Source of the DNA: Anaerolineae bacterium
GTDB taxonomy: Bacteria > Chloroflexota > Anaerolineae > Anaerolineales > UBA4823
Assembly (NCBI GenBank): GCA_003130835.1
Contig: QEXX01000081.1
Span: 4,467 to 68,466 of the forward strand
Direction of reading: 5' to 3'
Length of the DNA: 64,000 bases
The notes under the pieces were generated by a model, which saw only the letters and a list, made by a program, of their open reading frames with translations, had not been told where the DNA came from and did no database searches. Numbering within the stretch: the stretch's first letter is position 1; each line of letters begins with the position of its first letter. Below, one piece after another: positions 5,530 through 29,640 of the stretch. The translations under genes were made by a program, and so were the position numbers.

Positions 5530-7833
5530 CTATGGCGGCGGAAAGGCGACCCAATACGAACGCCGTGGCCAAGCCGCTGGGCGGCTCAGGGGCGGATAGC
5601 CTTTCTTCATCCAACACAGGCGATACCCGCATTGCGTTAGAATCTGCCAAGCAGCCTCACTGCAGGCTGGATTGTGGGTTTCGAGCAGCACCAGCGGGCG
5701 CACTTGCTCAAGCAAGCGCCGCATGCCGCGTAGAACGGCTACTTCGCCGCCCTCGACATCGATCTTGACCACCTGGGGCGGCGGATAGCCCTGCTCAAAG
5801 ACGAGCGCATCCAGCGCCACGCCCGGCACAGCAAGCTGTTCGCTCCCCGCAGACACATCCGTTCCATGCTCCACAACCCGCCCGGTATCATCCGAAGGGC
5901 CAATCAAAAAGGTCACCGTTTGAGCGGCTTCCACCACCGCTGCGGCAACCACTTCCATCGGTGCTAAGCCGGCATTAGCCGCCAGATTCTGCTTTAGGCG
6001 GTGCACGTTGGCAGGGAACGGCTCAAAGGCGATCACCTTGCCCTGCTCGCCCACCCTGCGGGCGAACAAGAGAGTGACATAGCCCACATTGGCGCCCACA
6101 TCGTAAGCCGTCTGCCCGGCTTGCACCCATTCTTCAATTGCCCTTTGTAGATCAGGCTCATAGGTGCCCAACCAATAATCCTTCTCCTGAGAGAGGTCAA
6201 GGTACAGGCTTAGCCCGCGCAAACCGCCGGCGGTGATCTCCACCCACTGCAGGTTATTGCCCACAGCGCGGTTGACGCGGCGGCGCAGCCAATTGGCAAG
6301 CCACGGCAGGCGATAAACCCAGCGTTTGAGCGTTAAGGGCGTCAGGCGCGAGAGCTTGCCCAAACCTACCAGCCAGAGCGAAGTGCTCTGGGCGGCTTTC
6401 GAATCGCTCTCCTGCGCGCCGGCTTTCGAATCGCTCCCCTGCACCCCGCTACTCAAGCCGTTTTGGGGGCGCGGGTCGAGTAGGGCGTCAGCCCGTACCG
6501 AGACCTGCGCGCCGGGTTGCGAACTGCTCCCCTGCGCCCCGTTACTCAAGCCGCTTTGGGGGCGCGGGTCGAGTAGGGCGTCAGTCCGTACCGAGACCTG
6601 CGCGCCGGCTTTCGAACCGCTCCCCTGCGCCCCGTTACTCAAGCCGTTTTGGGGGCGCGGGTCGAGTAGGGCATCAGCCCGTACCGAGACCTGCGCGCCG
6701 GGTTGCGAACTGCTCCCCTGCGGCTCGTTACTCATGCTACCGCTTCCTCCTCCCGGCCTAGGAACAGGACTAGCGTTCAGGGCAATCCCCATCACTTGTG
6801 CATAAGCCTTTGCCATCTCACGCACATCGAAACAAGCTTCGGCGCGCGCCCGCGCTGCCGCACGCAGCGCCTCCTGTTGCAAAGCGATCTCCACGCCCGC
6901 TTGCGCTAAGGCGGCTACATCGGGCGTATCCAACCGCCAGGCATCTCCCCCATACGCCACCACGCGCCCACAAGTCTCGTTGACCAACTCCGGCAAGGCA
7001 CCGCTTTCGAAAGCCAGCACCGGCAAGCCACACGCCAATGCCTCGATCACAGAATTGGGACAGGCCGGATGGACATCTGCCGAGTAGAGCAAATGCGCCG
7101 AACGATCCAGAAAGGGGATTTCAGCCGCTGCCACGCGTCCCTGCCAGTGAATCGGCACACGGCTAAGCTTTTGATAAGCTTGGCGCACCGCTTCGGCAAC
7201 CTGCCCAACCACCATCAACTCTAGCCCTTGCGGATAGCGTTTGCCCCATTCGGGCTGCAAGGCGCGCAGTTCATCCATCAGGCGCATCGCCACGCCCAGC
7301 CCCCACTCATAACCACCCCCTAGCGTACCCTCGACCATGAGCACTCGCAGACGATCCTTGGGTCGTTGGTGCTCTCCTTGTGGACAAAACTGCTCTAAGT
7401 CAACCCCGTTGTAAATCACGCAGTGGGGCACAGGGGTTTTCCCATACACCCGTTCCCACCAGTCTTGAGCAAAGCGGCTCTGATAGACCACAGCCGTCGC
7501 CAAACGCCGCCGAATCAACGCCAAGGTGAGGTTGGCAATCTCGGCGCGCAGCCAGTGGCGCAGCGGCAATGTCCCCCCGCGCACGCTGGGGGGCAGGCGA
7601 TGCAGCCAATTCAGCCCATCCAAACGCTGTACAATCGGAATGCCGCGCCGCCGCACCCGCCACAAGTCTGCCAATTGGCGCGTGCCACCGATGACCAACA
7701 CGGCTTGATAGGGTCGGTCTTGCAAATCTTGCGTGACCTCAACTCCCCAGCTTTCCAAGACGGCCGTCAAGCGCTCCCGAAAAGAGACCATTCCCCCCAC
7801 TCCACTCACGCGCGGCACCAGACACACCTTCAT
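5530..7833 (-). CDS. GT4 glycosyltransferase joined in frame, via a repeat-derived linker, to an FkbM-family methyltransferase (possible internal start at 6735)
   Basis: N-part: IYNGVD, CPNSVIEALACGLPV. C-part: YDVGANVGY, AFEP, VKIDVEGGE. ATG 7833 overlaps the upstream stop (ATGA); no stop between the domains. Confidence 0.82.
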   Translation of the reverse strand: MKVCLVPRVSGVGGMVSFRERLTAVLESWGVEVTQDLQDRPYQAVLVIGGTRQLADLWRVRRRGIPIVQRLDGLNWLHRLPPSVRGGTLPLRHWLRAEIANLTLALIRRRLATAVVYQSRFAQDWWERVYGKTPVPHCVIYNGVDLEQFCPQGEHQRPKDRLRVLMVEGTLGGGYEWGLGVAMRLMDELRALQPEWGKRYPQGLELMVVGQVAEAVRQAYQKLSRVPIHWQGRVAAAEIPFLDRSAHLLYSADVHPACPNSVIEALACGLPVLAFESGALPELVNETCGRVVAYGGDAWRLDTPDVAALAQAGVEIALQQEALRAAARARAEACFDVREMAKAYAQVMGIALNASPVPRPGGGSGSMSNEPQGSSSQPGAQVSVRADALLDPRPQNGLSNGAQGSGSKAGAQVSVRTDALLDPRPQSGLSNGAQGSSSQPGAQVSVRADALLDPRPQNGLSSGVQGSDSKAGAQESDSKAAQSTSLWLVGLGKLSRLTPLTLKRWVYRLPWLANWLRRRVNRAVGNNLQWVEITAGGLRGLSLYLDLSQEKDYWLGTYEPDLQRAIEEWVQAGQTAYDVGANVGYVTLLFARRVGEQGKVIAFEPFPANVHRLKQNLAANAGLAPMEVVAAAVVEAAQTVTFLIGPSDDTGRVVEHGTDVSAGSEQLAVPGVALDALVFEQGYPPPQVVKIDVEGGEVAVLRGMRRLLEQVRPLVLLETHNPACSEAAWQILTQCGYRLCWMKKGYPPLSRPAAWPRRSYWVAFPPP
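6390..6735. repeat. intragenic 93-bp tandem repeat (three full units plus partial) derived from the intergenic REP family
   Basis: GGGTCGAGTAGGGCGTCAGCCCGTACCGAGACC (0-1 mismatch) at 6473, 6566 and 6659, exactly 93 bp apart; encodes 31-aa units such as PQNGLSNGAQGSGSKAGAQVSVRTDALLDPR. Confidence 0.95.
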
Positions 7834-8270
7834 GGACGCACGCCCACTTTGCGGGCTGGCACGCCAGCCCAAATCTCGTTCTCCCCGGTCGATTCGAGCA
7901 GCACCGCGTTGGCGCCCACCACCGTGCCGCGTCGCACTCGCAGGATACCCTCTTTGCCCAGCACTTTTGCACCGGGCGATAAGATGACATCGTCCTCGAT
8001 TACAATCCCTTCAAAGCGCGACTCGTGAATCGGCCGGTAGATGTCTGCCCTGCCCGTGCCCACGCCGGGGTAAATTTTGACCCGCTTGCCGATCACCGTC
8101 TTGGAGTGTATGACCACCCCAAAGCCGCCGTGTGCCAGCTCAAACCCTTCACCGATCGGCACACTGCGCGGGATCTCCACCCCCAACAGCTTGAGCAGGT
8201 AATAGGCGAAAATGCCCAAAATGGGCGCGTTGCGGGCATAGACCAAGCGGGTGTAAAAATCTTGCGCCAT
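7830..8270 (-). CDS. hexapeptide-repeat O-acyltransferase (serine acetyltransferase-like), polysaccharide modification
   Basis: IGEGFELAH, GVVIHSKTVIG, IEDDVILSPGAKVLG, VVGANAV and GVPARKV left-handed beta-helix motifs; heads an operon with two GTs. Confidence 0.85.
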   Translation of the reverse strand: MAQDFYTRLVYARNAPILGIFAYYLLKLLGVEIPRSVPIGEGFELAHGGFGVVIHSKTVIGKRVKIYPGVGTGRADIYRPIHESRFEGIVIEDDVILSPGAKVLGKEGILRVRRGTVVGANAVLLESTGENEIWAGVPARKVGVRP

Positions 8271-8672: not shown

Positions 8673-9449
8673 ATGGCGTTATCCGTTGGGCAACTGGCAC
8701 CCGACTTTACTCTGTTCGACCAGCGCAAGCGCCCGGTCTCTCTGAGCGACTTTCGCGGGCGCAAGAATGTGGTCTTGGCTTTCTTCCCGCTGGCTTGGAC
8801 ACCAATATGAAGCAGCCAAATCCCATCCTATCAGGCGGCGCTCGACCGCTTTGAGCGGATGGATACCCAGGTTCTGGGTATTAGTGTGGACAGCAGCGAT
8901 TGTCTCTATGCTTGGGCGGAAAGCCTTGGCGGGATCACCTATCCCTTGCTGAGCGATTTCTTCCCGCATGGGCGCGTGGCGCAACTGTATGGGGTGCTGC
9001 GCCCTGAAGGGTATAGCGAGCGGGCGATCTTCGTCATCGACAAACGAGGGGTGATTCGCTATGTCGATGTGCACGAAATTGACGATCAGCCAGATAATGA
9101 GGTGCTGTTTGCTGAGCTGTATAAGCTCGAGCCAGAGTTAGCCGAAAAAGATCGCCAGATTCTGCAACGCCAGCAACAAGCCGAGGCTGCCAGCGAACCC
9201 GAAGCTCCTGCAGCCGAGGTGGTCATGTATTGCACCCCGTGGTGCCCAGCTTGCCGACGGGCGCGCGCCTACTTTAATGAGAAGAAAATTCCCTTTGTGG
9301 AGATCGACATCTCACGTGACCGAACGGCGGCTGCCCAAGTGCGCCAATGGGCAAAAGGCAACGAGACCACCCCCACCTTCCTCATCAAGGGCAAGGTGAT
9401 TGTAGAGTTCCGCATCGATGAAATCGAAGCGGCGCTAAAGCAAACGTAG
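8673..9449 (+). CDS. AhpC/TSA (AhpE-like) peroxiredoxin fused to a C-terminal glutaredoxin-like domain; probable selenoprotein
   Basis: ATG 8673 reads [14 protein letters not shown]...[13 protein letters not shown]-(TGA 8808-8810)-SSQIP..., in frame with ORF 8859..9449; TGA occupies the Cys of PxxxTxxC; C-terminal YCTPWCPAC and TTPT Grx motifs. Confidence 0.9.
8823..8863 (+). promoter_or_regulatory. candidate bacterial SECIS hairpin
   Basis: CGCTC/GAGCG upper stem (8839-8843 with 8853-8857), loop starting with G 33 nt after TGA; lower stem CCATC/GATGG also possible. Confidence 0.5.
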
Positions 9450-11677: not shown

Positions 11678-13279
11678 TCATTCGGTGAGATAGTCTCGCA
11701 AATGGCGGCTGCGCGTGGGATGGCGCAGCTTACGCAAGGCTTTCGATTCGATCTGGCGAATGCGCTCGCGGGTGACGTTGAAGTATTGGCCCACTTCCTC
11801 CAGCGTGTGATCTTTGCCGTCCAGCAAGCCAAAACGCATTTCCAGCACTTGGCGCTCGCGTTCGGAGAGCACCGCCAGGGCGTTTTGGATTGATTCGCGC
11901 AGCATTTCACGCGCTGCAGCATCCATCGGTTCGATGGCATCTTGGTCTTCGATGAAATCTCCCAACTGGCTGTTTTCCTCACTGCCAACCGGGCTCTCCA
12001 ACGACATCGGTTCCTCGGCGGCTTGTAGAATGCGCTCGACCTTCAGGGCTGCCCGTTGCCAGCGGCGGCGCACTTCGGGAGGAATTGGGGTGCCTTCGGC
12101 GCGGCAGCGGCGGATGATCTGTTCGTCCTTGGGATCGAGAAAGCCGCCTTCCAGAGCCATCTCGTCATAGCCGGGTTCGCGTCCATATTGCTGCAACAGA
12201 CGTCGTTGGATGCGCAGTAAACGATTGATGGATTCGAAGACGTGCACCGGAATGCGGATGGTGCGCGCCTGATCGGCTATCGAACGGCTGATCGACTGCC
12301 GAATCCACCAGGTGGCATAGGTGCTGAACTTGTAGCCGCGGGCTGGGTCAAACTTTGCTACCGCCCGCAGCAAGCCGATATTGCCTTCTTGGATTAGGTC
12401 CAAGAAGGCACTCCCCCGTCCAAGATAGCGTTTGGCAACCGAAACCACCAGACGCAAGTTGGCGCGAATCAGGGCATACTGTGCTTCAGCAGCCGCCTGA
12501 CGAATCTCTTCGATTTCCTGCCGAAAAACCGCTTCATCGGGGGGATAGTTTTTCAATCGAAGCAGGGTCGGAATGTCCTTTTTCGCAACGATGTATTCCT
12601 TCAGTTCCGCAATGCTAACTTCAGGAAATAGATAGAGGTGCACATAAACCGAGAACACATAGCGCGCTAGGGTATCCCAACGCCGATCTTCACCCCAGCG
12701 TCCGTTGTCCAGATAGGAGCGCACGTAAGATGGTTCAGCCAGCTTCCAATTTTGGCGTAGGGCGCGCGCTTCGTGTAGGATTTTCTCCAACTCTGGACGG
12801 TCATATTTCAGGCGTTGAGTATCCTCTTTGACCCGCTTCCAAGCTGTGCGCGTCTCATCTAACAGGGCTTCGTAGTAGGCTTGGGCGGTTTTTTGTACCG
12901 CTTTGCTCTCGCCGGGCAAGAGGGCTTCCAAACGCCGTAAGGCATCCAGACGGGTCGCCAGCCAGAACTCCTGGTCGGAGTCGAGAAGCTCAATTCCGCC
13001 GATTTCCTTGAGGTATAAGCGCACCGGATCTTCCCCTAATTCGGCAAGCAGGCGCGGGTCTTCTAAGAGCTTCAGGGGTTCCTCGGCAATGATTTGCTCG
13101 ATTTCTTGGTCTTTGATGGAGAGGAGCTCCTGGTCGGGTTCCTCTAAATCGGTGGGTTCTAAGTCCACCAAGAGATCATCTGCTCTTTCGGGCAGGAAAA
13201 AATCTTCTAAGGAATCGCTTTTAGCTGCGTCTTCGAACCCAGAAGCTCTTTTCTTTCCTCTCGGTTGAGATGCGTCCAT
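11678..13279 (-). CDS. rpoD: primary-type sigma-70 factor (RpoD/SigA) with inserted segments
   Basis: [11 protein letters not shown] (1.2), [47 protein letters not shown]; directly downstream of dnaG. Confidence 0.9.
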
Positions 13280-23723: not shown

Positions 23724-24020
23724 TTACGGGTTGCGTAGCGCAACGTATCGAAACCCGCTGGGTTGAGCAGTGTGCTGAGCTTGTCGAAGCGCCTGTCGAA
23801 ACCCGCTGGGTTGGGTCTCGGTACGGGCTGACGCCCTACTCGACCCACAGGAAGGCGCGGGTTGAGCTTGCATTGAGTTTGTCGAAATGTAGCGAGCGCC
23901 AGCGAGCGTACCGAAACCCGCTGGGTTAGGTCTCGGTACGGGCTGAGGCCCTACTCGACCCGCCATACTCCCCTCGCTCCTCGTGGGAGAGGGGTTGGGG
24001 GTGAGGGTCACTCCCCTCGC
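23724..24020. repeat. composite REP/BIME-like cluster (inverted relative to the 29.3 kb cluster)
   Basis: 33-bp core GGTCTCGGTACGGGCTGACGCCCTACTCGACCC at 23814-23846 and 23929-23961 (1 mismatch); GAAACCCGCTGGGTT three times; GAGCTTGTCGAAG module; GGGAGAGGGGTTGGGGGTGAGGG module. Confidence 0.9.
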
Positions 24021-29337: not shown

Positions 29338-29640
29338 AGGTCGAGTAGGGCGTCAGCCCGTACCGAGACCCAACCCAACGGGTTTCAGTACGCTGCGCTA
29401 GTCAACCTGTCCCTCACCCCCAACCCCTCTCCCACGAGGGGCGAGGGGAGTGCGGCGGGTCGAGTAGGGCGTCAGCCCGTACCGAGACCCAACCCAACGG
29501 GTTTCGGTACGCAACCTGTCCCCTCACCCCCAACCCCTCTCCCTCGAGGGGCGAGGGGAGTGCGGCGGGTCGAGTAGGGCGTCAGCCCGTACCGAGACCC
29601 AACCCAACGGGTTTCAGTACGCTGCGCTACTCAACCCGCA
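29338..29640. repeat. composite REP/BIME-like cluster, three units
   Basis: 33-bp core at 29338, 29457 and 29567, each followed by CAACCCAACGGGTTTC; alternates with CCCTCACCCCCAACCCCTCTCCC...GGGGCGAGGGGAG; lies between convergent genes. Confidence 0.92.

Follow-up and report, generated by a model that had tools for sequence, protein, structure and literature searches.

A short hairpin repeat that otherwise lies between genes is found in frame within an enzyme gene of a 64,000-nt stretch of DNA from an Anaerolineae bacterium (contig QEXX01000081.1, positions 4,467 to 68,466; hereafter the window). How does a selfish, non-coding repeat come to be part of a protein gene, and does the protein put it to use? 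The reading that we favour, with a probability of about three in four, is that a composite hairpin repeat was tandemly amplified within the linker of a fusion between a GT4 glycosyltransferase (GT) and an FkbM methyltransferase, that this linker consists of formerly intergenic DNA, and that the repeats are tolerated there as a passive spacer. The window is contig C39 of the genome G000, a 3.45-Mb bin of 158 contigs (51% GC) from an uncultured Anaerolineae/Anaerolineales bacterium of hot-spring microbial mats.

The gene is a single open reading frame (ORF) that encodes 767 aa from a probable ATG at 7833, which forms an ATGA overlap with the stop of the preceding hexapeptide-transferase ORF; the open frame itself extends to a TTG at 7872 (ORF 5530-7872, reverse strand). 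The database protein P0003 is the same ORF. Pfam places the GT4 domains at residues 72-323, with Glyco_trans_1_4/Glycos_transf_1 (PF13692/PF00534) at 203-323, and the FkbM domain Methyltransf_21 (PF05050) at residues 591-752 (E 2.7e-21, 76.9 bits versus a cut-off of 22.7). Both catalytic domains are recognisable within one uninterrupted frame, with no stop codon between them. They are separated by a linker of which 117 of the 134 aa are encoded by a tandem array and its partial units, close to the about 115 aa estimated in a preliminary description of the locus. The array derives from a family that resembles repetitive extragenic palindromic (REP) elements. The parts of the gene are as follows, the repeat units being given in coding direction:

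5530..7833, reverse strand: single gene for GT4 glycosyltransferase, repeat linker and FkbM methyltransferase (ORF list, translation, Pfam)
6784..7833, reverse strand: GT4 (GT-B fold) glycosyltransferase module (Pfam PF13692/PF00534/PF13439)
6382..6783, reverse strand: inter-domain linker, 134 aa (134-135 by choice of edge; position relative to unfused relatives, AlphaFold2)
6733..6753, reverse strand: possible internal start, ATG at 6735-6733 with GGAGGAGGA (6753-6745) 9 nt upstream (read from the sequence)
6385..6735, reverse strand: REP-derived tandem array (Tandem Repeats Finder, unit layout)
6735-6694, reverse strand: 5' partial unit of 42 nt, MSNEPQGSSSQPGA
6693-6601, 6600-6508 and 6507-6415, reverse strand: three full 93-nt units, 31 aa each
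6414-6388, reverse strand: 27-nt partial duplicate, QESDSKAAQ
6659..6690, forward strand: module A copy, 1 mismatch
6566..6597, forward strand: module A copy, 1 mismatch
6473..6504, forward strand: module A copy, 32-nt hairpin whose core GTAGGGCGTCAGCCCGTAC contains GTAG, no mismatch relative to the genomic consensus
5530..6381, reverse strand: methyltransferase module of the FkbM family, with the helices of its N-terminus (SLWLVGLGKLSRL...) and, at 5530-5532, the stop codon (Pfam PF05050, outgroup alignment)

Tandem Repeats Finder delimits the array at 6411-6734 with a period of 93, 3.5 copies, 91% matches and no indels. Each of the three full units carries module A with 0-1 mismatch (6473, 6566, 6659), just as had been described before, followed by a module B that is indeed stretched, i.e. 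a longer and diverged version of the intergenic module B. The unit peptide reads QVSVR[A/T]DALLDPRPQ[N/S]GLS[N/S]G[A/V]QGS[G/S/D]S[K/Q][A/P]GA, wherein module A corresponds to QVSVRADALLDPR with the motif VSVRADALLDPR. Ser, Gly, Ala, Gln and Pro make up 64% of the linker, and the peptides expected from its translation include ADALLDPRPQNGLSNGAQGSGSK and AGAQVSVR. On the coding strand only the used frame is open across the array (0 stops versus 4 and 7 in the other two). Since three of all six frames are open across the whole array (four of six for module A by itself), a random insertion of such an array would have an about even chance of not interrupting a gene.

Module A is a 32-nt sequence (GGGTCGAGTAGGGCGTCAGCCCGTACCGAGAC) with eight matches in the window at 0-1 mismatch, namely at 6473, 6566, 6659, 23815(-), 23930(-), 29338, 29457 and 29567, compared to 0 expected from 100 shuffles. 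Genome-wide 73 copies are found at up to 3 mismatches and 77 at up to 4, while a reversed-pattern control yields 0. The clusters are often tandem, with periods of 53, 74-77, 83, 92-94 and 110-119 nt, and module A forms the end of many contigs. In G000, recognisable protein domains flank module A at a single site, the GT-FkbM gene. All other copies lie either in short ORFs or in longer ones that plainly represent translated repeat clusters, and no other protein-coding host of module A or of VSVRADALLDPR was found in the genome, the spanning ORFs (up to 282 aa) being devoid of domains. The earlier proposal of a selfish non-coding repeat that sits in frame within a protein gene is thus borne out, with about 75 genomic copies of which all others are non-coding. 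An Rfam scan of the window matched no family. The two intergenic clusters of the window are:

23815..23961, reverse strand: two module A copies (23815-23846, 23930-23961) with module B variants and a 'PSP' hairpin element
29338..29632, forward strand: module A three times (29338, 29457, 29567), with a loop and then module B in inverted orientation after every copy, and the 'PSP' element (CTCACCCCCAACCCCTCTCCC...GGGGCGAGGGGAG) interspersed among them

The 'PSP' element represents a second hairpin repeat family (CTCACCCCCRACCCCTCTCCC ... GGGGCGAGGGGAG), which is translated as LTPNPSPxGRGE and occurs in the window at 29403-29440, 29513-29550 and 23962-24010. It has 48 copies in G000 and 30-273 across all seven genomes of the genus, is nearly absent outside the genus and is interleaved with the module A clusters.

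Module B is approximately the reverse complement of module A, and the non-coding A-loop-B doublets fold as long hairpins (-37.8 kcal/mol at z -5.2 and -50.9 kcal/mol at z -4.4; A+B folds at z -5.2 and -3.4 in the cluster 29338..29632). The GTAG lies within GA-GTAG-GGCGTCAGCCC-GTAC, and the predicted folds pair its GTA with TAC such that it is not clearly an unpaired terminal tag. For the units within the gene the folds reach z values of -1.2 to -1.8, versus -4.4 and -4.7 for the unit of an array on contig C140 that is non-coding. The long A:B hairpin has thus been lost from the coding copies.

This C140 array (11680-12330) comprises 6-7 units that likewise recur every 93 nt. Its open frame corresponds to that of the ORF unit, with which its unit can be aligned over the full length (64 of 93 positions identical ungapped, ~70% gapped). 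Because a non-coding array shares the 93-bp period, this period is not a protein product; the stop-free 93-bp unit belongs to the element rather than to the protein. That the unit length is a multiple of three and free of stops, as had been pointed out, is therefore true of the array without being special to the gene. The C140 array lies in a stop-free, domain-less ORF of 280 aa (C140:11489-12331, forward strand, ...LRVLVRADALLDPRPQSGLSSERQRAYRNPH...), for which gene callers will probably report a hypothetical repeat protein. For annotation in general, module A/B repeats yield long spurious ORFs of this kind and break or collapse short-read assemblies.

The history of the linker was followed by using the whole protein as query against 30 related genomes. 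In all five other genus genomes that have both parts on one contig, GT and FkbM form one open frame (732-883 aa), while in other genera of the family and order the two are adjacent but separate ORFs. The outgroup GT genes stop directly after a motif matching ...AYAQVMGI, and the GT4 module studied here terminates with ...AKAYAQVMGI at exactly this stop-codon position. Outgroup FkbM genes begin 10-15 codons before ...LKRxxYRLP. As these stops and starts fall on the two edges of the linker, the linker corresponds to the old stop codon plus an intergenic spacer of a few tens of bases. The picture of an insertion into an ordinary protein consequently has to be revised: the genes are fused only in this genus, and the site of insertion itself was non-coding before the fusion.

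A census of 36 loci, classified by tblastn anchors and mostly taken from one metagenome-contig scan, gave the following states:

Genus-level loci (11): 9 in frame without stop, 2 out of frame, 0 in the same frame with a stop; anchor gap of 108-831 nt for the loci in frame and of 328 and 622 nt for the two others
Loci outside the genus (25): 0 in frame without stop, 19 out of frame, 6 in the same frame with a stop; gap mostly 40-115 nt

States other than frame-preserving ones are uncommon among the linkers. Where repeats fill the linker (three cases), the used frame is free of stops, while the other two sense frames have 5/10, 2/2 and 3/3.

Across the genus representatives the linker length ranges from 31 to 184 aa, being longer in some strains, and the content is unrelated:

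G000: 134-135 aa, module A/B units
G005: 103 aa, 41-47-nt 'PSP' hairpin units (LTPDPSPxGRGE and similar)
G001: 184 aa, 41-47-nt 'PSP' hairpin units (LTPDPSPxGRGE and similar)
G003: 31 aa, one module-B-like piece and one 'PSP' piece
G004 and G006: short, non-repeat

The linker is thus filled in each species by whichever hairpin repeats its genome carries. Module A is restricted to G000 and G003. In a tree built from the two domains G000 groups with G005 and G001 (support 95/98), both of which lack module A, such that the array must have reached, in the G000 lineage, a linker that was coding already. The insertion thus postdates the fusion. The comparison of orthologues, which had been put forward as a check on presence and copy number of the insert, accordingly yielded sister species without the insert as well as a near-identical locus with five units (see below).

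The G003 orthologue (L006) contains a second in-frame repeat-derived insertion, which is located inside the GT domain in a loop after ...NWLHRLP. Its DNA contains two GGTTTCGACAAG.TCAAC-type module-B variants, a variant that has 21 copies in G000. The insertion is shorter in protein P0018 (STRFRQDQPPSSGG) than in P0020 (STRFRQDQPASTSASSVRHSGQRTSTGFQQAQLASSGG).

Within the array the units are 91-96% identical to one another, versus ~70% to the nearest copy outside; the best outside match covers 57 nt only, at 89%. The proposed tandem amplification agrees with these values, and it took place in situ. An independent 110-kb metagenome contig of the Joint Genome Institute (JGI), L026, has the same gene order and flanks of 99.4-99.6% identity and contains five full units, which would encode ~179 aa of array. 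The three units of the window are identical to units 1, 3 and 5 of L026. As 93 is divisible by 3, any whole number of units preserves the frame and a change from 3 to 5 units never breaks it. The array thus behaves as an in-frame variable number tandem repeat (VNTR) with a 93-nt unit and 3 versus 5 units between near-identical contigs.

Given that the bin is fragmented into 158 contigs, many of them ending in module A, one may ask whether the array, or its in-frame length, is an artefact of short-read metagenome assembly, as a repeat-induced misassembly would be. Logan unitigs at k=31 do not resolve the 93-bp period and hence the exact copy number. Moreover, reads of the likely source sample and of two other runs hold a unit variant (6585 T>C, 6587 C>T) which matches L026 unit 2 and which the window lacks, and L026 itself has five units. 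The three units of the window may therefore be a collapsed or minority form, with a true number of 3-5.

The locus itself recurs in independent data. In Logan contigs of the DNA run X1 the FkbM side continues into the array (5900-6479), as does the GT side (6693-7296), and array-specific unitigs of similar depth lie between the two flank contigs. The metatranscriptome X2 covers 5900-6479, 6543-6665 and 6812-7296, and X5 covers 6090-6486, 6507-6584, 6643-6722 and 6693-7273, both being runs of one study other than that of X1. The DNA run X6 of a third study holds an array-specific piece. Both junctions between flanks and array as well as the array-specific module B variant are thus present in DNA and RNA sets of three studies and, in addition, in the JGI contig. 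Since whole 93-nt units keep the frame, an error in copy number would leave the conclusion unchanged. We hence regard an assembly artefact as extremely improbable; what stays variable is the copy number, 3-5. The locus is real and transcribed through the array, as judged from contigs that are unstranded and RNA libraries that can contain DNA. Joints that skip the array were seen in neither the DNA nor the RNA contigs. Splicing or removal of the array at the RNA level had also been considered and was rejected, as the RNA contigs hold no such joints.

Transcription through the array together with frame conservation suggests that the array is presumably translated as part of one polypeptide. Alternatively, the locus could give rise to two products, with FkbM being made mainly from the internal ATG at 6735. 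The repeats would then form an N-terminal extension of FkbM or a C-terminal tail of the GT, and the open frame would be a by-product of a GC-rich, stop-poor repeat rather than of selection for the fusion. This would fit the Shine-Dalgarno-like motif that precedes this ATG at the array's 5' end, the open frames noted above (4 of 6 for module A, 3 of 6 for the array) and the existence of out-of-frame natural variants with separate GT and FkbM gene calls in a sister species. However, with no stop between GT and array, ribosomes that initiate at the GT must read into FkbM. The internal ATG arises inside the last module B, such that start and Shine-Dalgarno (SD) motif are made by the repeat itself, and neither is conserved in the other species. 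The open frame is kept at 9 of 11 genus-level loci despite wholly different linker lengths, with stops in the other sense frames, and the out-of-frame variants show no convincing start or SD motif before the FkbM domain. Two separate products thus seem unlikely to us. Of the two placements named in the preliminary description, the linker between GT and FkbM domains is the one that stands, and the N-terminal extension stays an alternative through ATG 6735.

If the array is part of a single fusion protein, does its peptide carry a function? An exapted peptide would mean that the 31-aa units (e.g. VSVRADALLDPR) had gained a specific role, be it protein contact, membrane or glycan binding, or that of a positively selected, length-tuned spacer. 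In its favour, every unit preserves module A, and with it VSVRADALLDPR, nearly intact, whereas the remaining sequence has diverged far from the non-coding copies. Furthermore, the coding module B encodes small polar residues (NGAQGSGSKAGAQ) that a linker can readily accommodate, in place of the SERQRAYRNPHLR expected from the non-coding C140 array, and the copy number differs between strains. The conservation of module A is, however, equally high in ~70 non-coding copies and therefore reflects the DNA element and not the peptide. Among five units there are 11 variable sites, of which 10 are non-synonymous and 1 is synonymous; two of the non-synonymous changes, R>Q and A>T, affect the module A peptide. 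The insert is missing from the closest sampled species, whose linkers hold unrelated repeats at this position or are short and free of repeats. AlphaFold2 assigns linker residues 354-476 of P0003 a predicted local distance difference test score (pLDDT) of 20-27 without secondary structure, while parts of both catalytic domains exceed 85. This model was used for the linker only, as the alignment held 16 sequences and the domain models were mediocre (mean pLDDT 56.7). The differences between units, the AlphaFold2 result, the composition, the linkers of the sister species and the conservation of module A all fit a passive flexible tether. Exaptation is not supported and appears very unlikely, whereas the tolerated spacer is supported. 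Of the two options that had been offered earlier, exapted or tolerated, the second holds; absence in sister species, varying copy number, the 10:1 ratio and the lack of predicted structure speak against the first.

The course of events that we propose is thus the following. Module A, a 32-nt GTAG-type palindrome, and a diverged inverted module B form a REP/REPIN-like doublet (REPIN, REP doublet forming hairpin). The GT stop codon would have been lost in the ancestor of the genus, which placed GT and the downstream FkbM into one ORF with a linker of formerly intergenic DNA. This linker would tolerate almost any stop-free sequence and be colonised by the hairpin families active in each lineage. 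The 93-nt (31-codon) unit may have entered after the split from the nearest sampled relatives and would have multiplied through slippage or unequal recombination. The resulting array would be read as a disordered Ser/Gly/Ala/Gln/Pro-rich tether with no sequence-specific role.

Several observations weigh against this account. Module A is near-identical to the genomic consensus while the module B variant is unique to the ORF, with no non-coding source in G000 or six congeners. Simple neutral decay does not account for this asymmetry. The change of module B and the loss of the hairpin could be due to selection against strong mRNA structure or awkward residues, or to an origin in some unsampled subfamily of module B. 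The SD-like GGAGGAGGA with ATG 6735 could yield a separate FkbM product besides the fusion, and the RNA support for an uninterrupted message comes from unstranded Logan metatranscriptome contigs with possible DNA content. In two ENA assemblies of a G001-like species (L027, L028; proteins P0023-P0025) GT and FkbM are out of frame within the repeats. Units of 41-47 nt make up their linkers, which measure 601 and 307 nt (length mod 3 = 1). The GT frame enters the FkbM N-terminus in the wrong phase, and a separate 252-aa FkbM is predicted from a GTG without an SD motif; other assemblies of the G001-like species are in frame (proteins of 762-919 aa). L027 and L028 might reflect errors of assembly, natural alleles that lost the fusion, or phase variation; either the fusion is not strictly required or the assemblies are wrong. 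Finally, a REP-associated tyrosine transposase (RAYT) or other transposase linked to the family was not found in assemblies that are incomplete and break at repeats. The only Y1_Tnp match in G000 is embedded in a methylase ORF on contig C151 with no module A-like sequence within the locus, and the Y1 genes of the congeners G001, G002 and G003 have no module A adjoining. For lack of a cognate transposase we term the element REP-like.

The out-of-frame variants also bear on the idea that the repeat-filled linker is an evolvable or switchable joint rather than inert filler, which we consider doubtful. The units of the sister species (41-47 nt) are not divisible by 3, such that one unit more or less puts FkbM out of frame, and two variants of this kind were found. 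If the idea were true, gain and loss of units in the sister species would act as an on/off switch of glycan methylation, i.e. a contingency locus that is perhaps driven by the pressure of phages or grazers on the cell surface. The 93-nt unit would have 'locked' the fusion in frame in the G000 species, where it would only tune the linker length.

The array gene belongs to a small glycan-synthesis operon of hexapeptide acyltransferase, GT4-FkbM and GT4. Two further ORFs deserve mention. The AhpC/TSA-glutaredoxin ORF at 8859-9449 (window 8673-9449, forward strand) matches the AhpC profile only from position 60, and in L026 a separate 45-aa AhpC fragment is called directly upstream of it, a layout consistent with a gene split by an in-frame stop. 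The C151 ORF mentioned above (C151:6969-10892, forward strand, 1281 aa) contains in frame a Y1 transposase domain (IS200-like, RAYT-type; PF01797, residues 551-627), bounded by similar peptides (GRDVRNPG ... GRDIRDPRV), and downstream of it an N6/N4 DNA-methylase domain (PF01555, residues 734-1047). This arrangement may represent the fusion of a domesticated Y1 enzyme with a methylase, or else a mobile element that inserted in frame.

How does the array compare to known systems? Bacterial interspersed mosaic elements (BIMEs) of E. coli are mosaic tandem REP clusters, which are extragenic and bind IHF, gyrase and Pol I. The family described here resembles them by combining a conserved palindrome with variable companion modules at several periods, and differs in that its array lies within coding sequence.

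REPs tagged by GTAG or CGTC include some that lie wholly inside ORFs, with clusters that encode 43-82 aa in Thauera and R. conorii. Such intragenic REPs were proposed to be neutral insertions in flexible linkers or loops, and GTAG REPs are on record in Chloroflexi (Di Nocera et al. 2013, PMC3733652). The REP doublet architecture is known as REPIN (Bertels & Rainey 2011, PMC3116915). In common with GTAG REPs and REPINs, module A is a short imperfect GTAG palindrome with tens of copies per genome, almost all of them intergenic, and lineage-restricted. As for REPINs, inverted doublets fold into a longer hairpin and the copies cluster in tandem mosaic arrays. Unlike in REP/REPIN systems, a REP-flanked RAYT was not found here, the sole Y1 domain being that of the methylase ORF without module A nearby. 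Compared to the intragenic REP clusters the coding array is longer (117 aa; ~179 aa in the five-unit variant) and lies in a former intergenic spacer.

Rickettsia palindromic elements (RPEs), as far as the summary in PMC10969869 describes them, are selfish hairpin repeats that occur between genes as well as in frame inside functional genes (Ogata et al. 2000). The analogy to them drawn in the preliminary description is apt with respect to behaviour, namely a hairpin repeat that is tolerated where the landing regions suit the fold (PMC10969869); the sequences are probably unrelated. RPEs, according to the same summary, are inserted singly, measure ~100-150 bp and occur in an obligate intracellular alpha-proteobacterium. 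The unit here, by contrast, is a 93-nt composite amplified in tandem, with a copy number that varies and with turnover among species of one genus. Mycobacterial interspersed repetitive units (MIRUs) are portrayed, in the part of PMC12548453 that deals with them, as 40-100 nt tandem repeats at junctions of co-transcribed genes with a copy number that varies between strains. Both systems share repeats at a gene junction, survival of the translation of the downstream gene and strain-variable copy number. A MIRU, in that portrayal, has its own small ORF coupled by stop/start overlap while the genes stay separate, whereas here the repeats would be read through in one polypeptide.

A full-text literature search for REP-bridged gene fusions gave nothing relevant. 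Since in-frame insertion of hairpin repeats is already documented for intragenic REPs and RPEs, there is little new in principle. What the present case adds to these systems is the formerly intergenic linker of a young gene fusion as the site of insertion, different repeat families in congeneric linkers and an in-frame VNTR. It offers a stepwise view of how selfish hairpin repeats may become protein, with a fusion by loss of a stop codon and then a linker that serves as landing and expansion site. Beside the single insertions of Rickettsia and the separate genes at MIRU junctions, it would thereby provide a concrete and datable example of the de novo birth of a linker from non-coding DNA in a free-living thermophile lineage.

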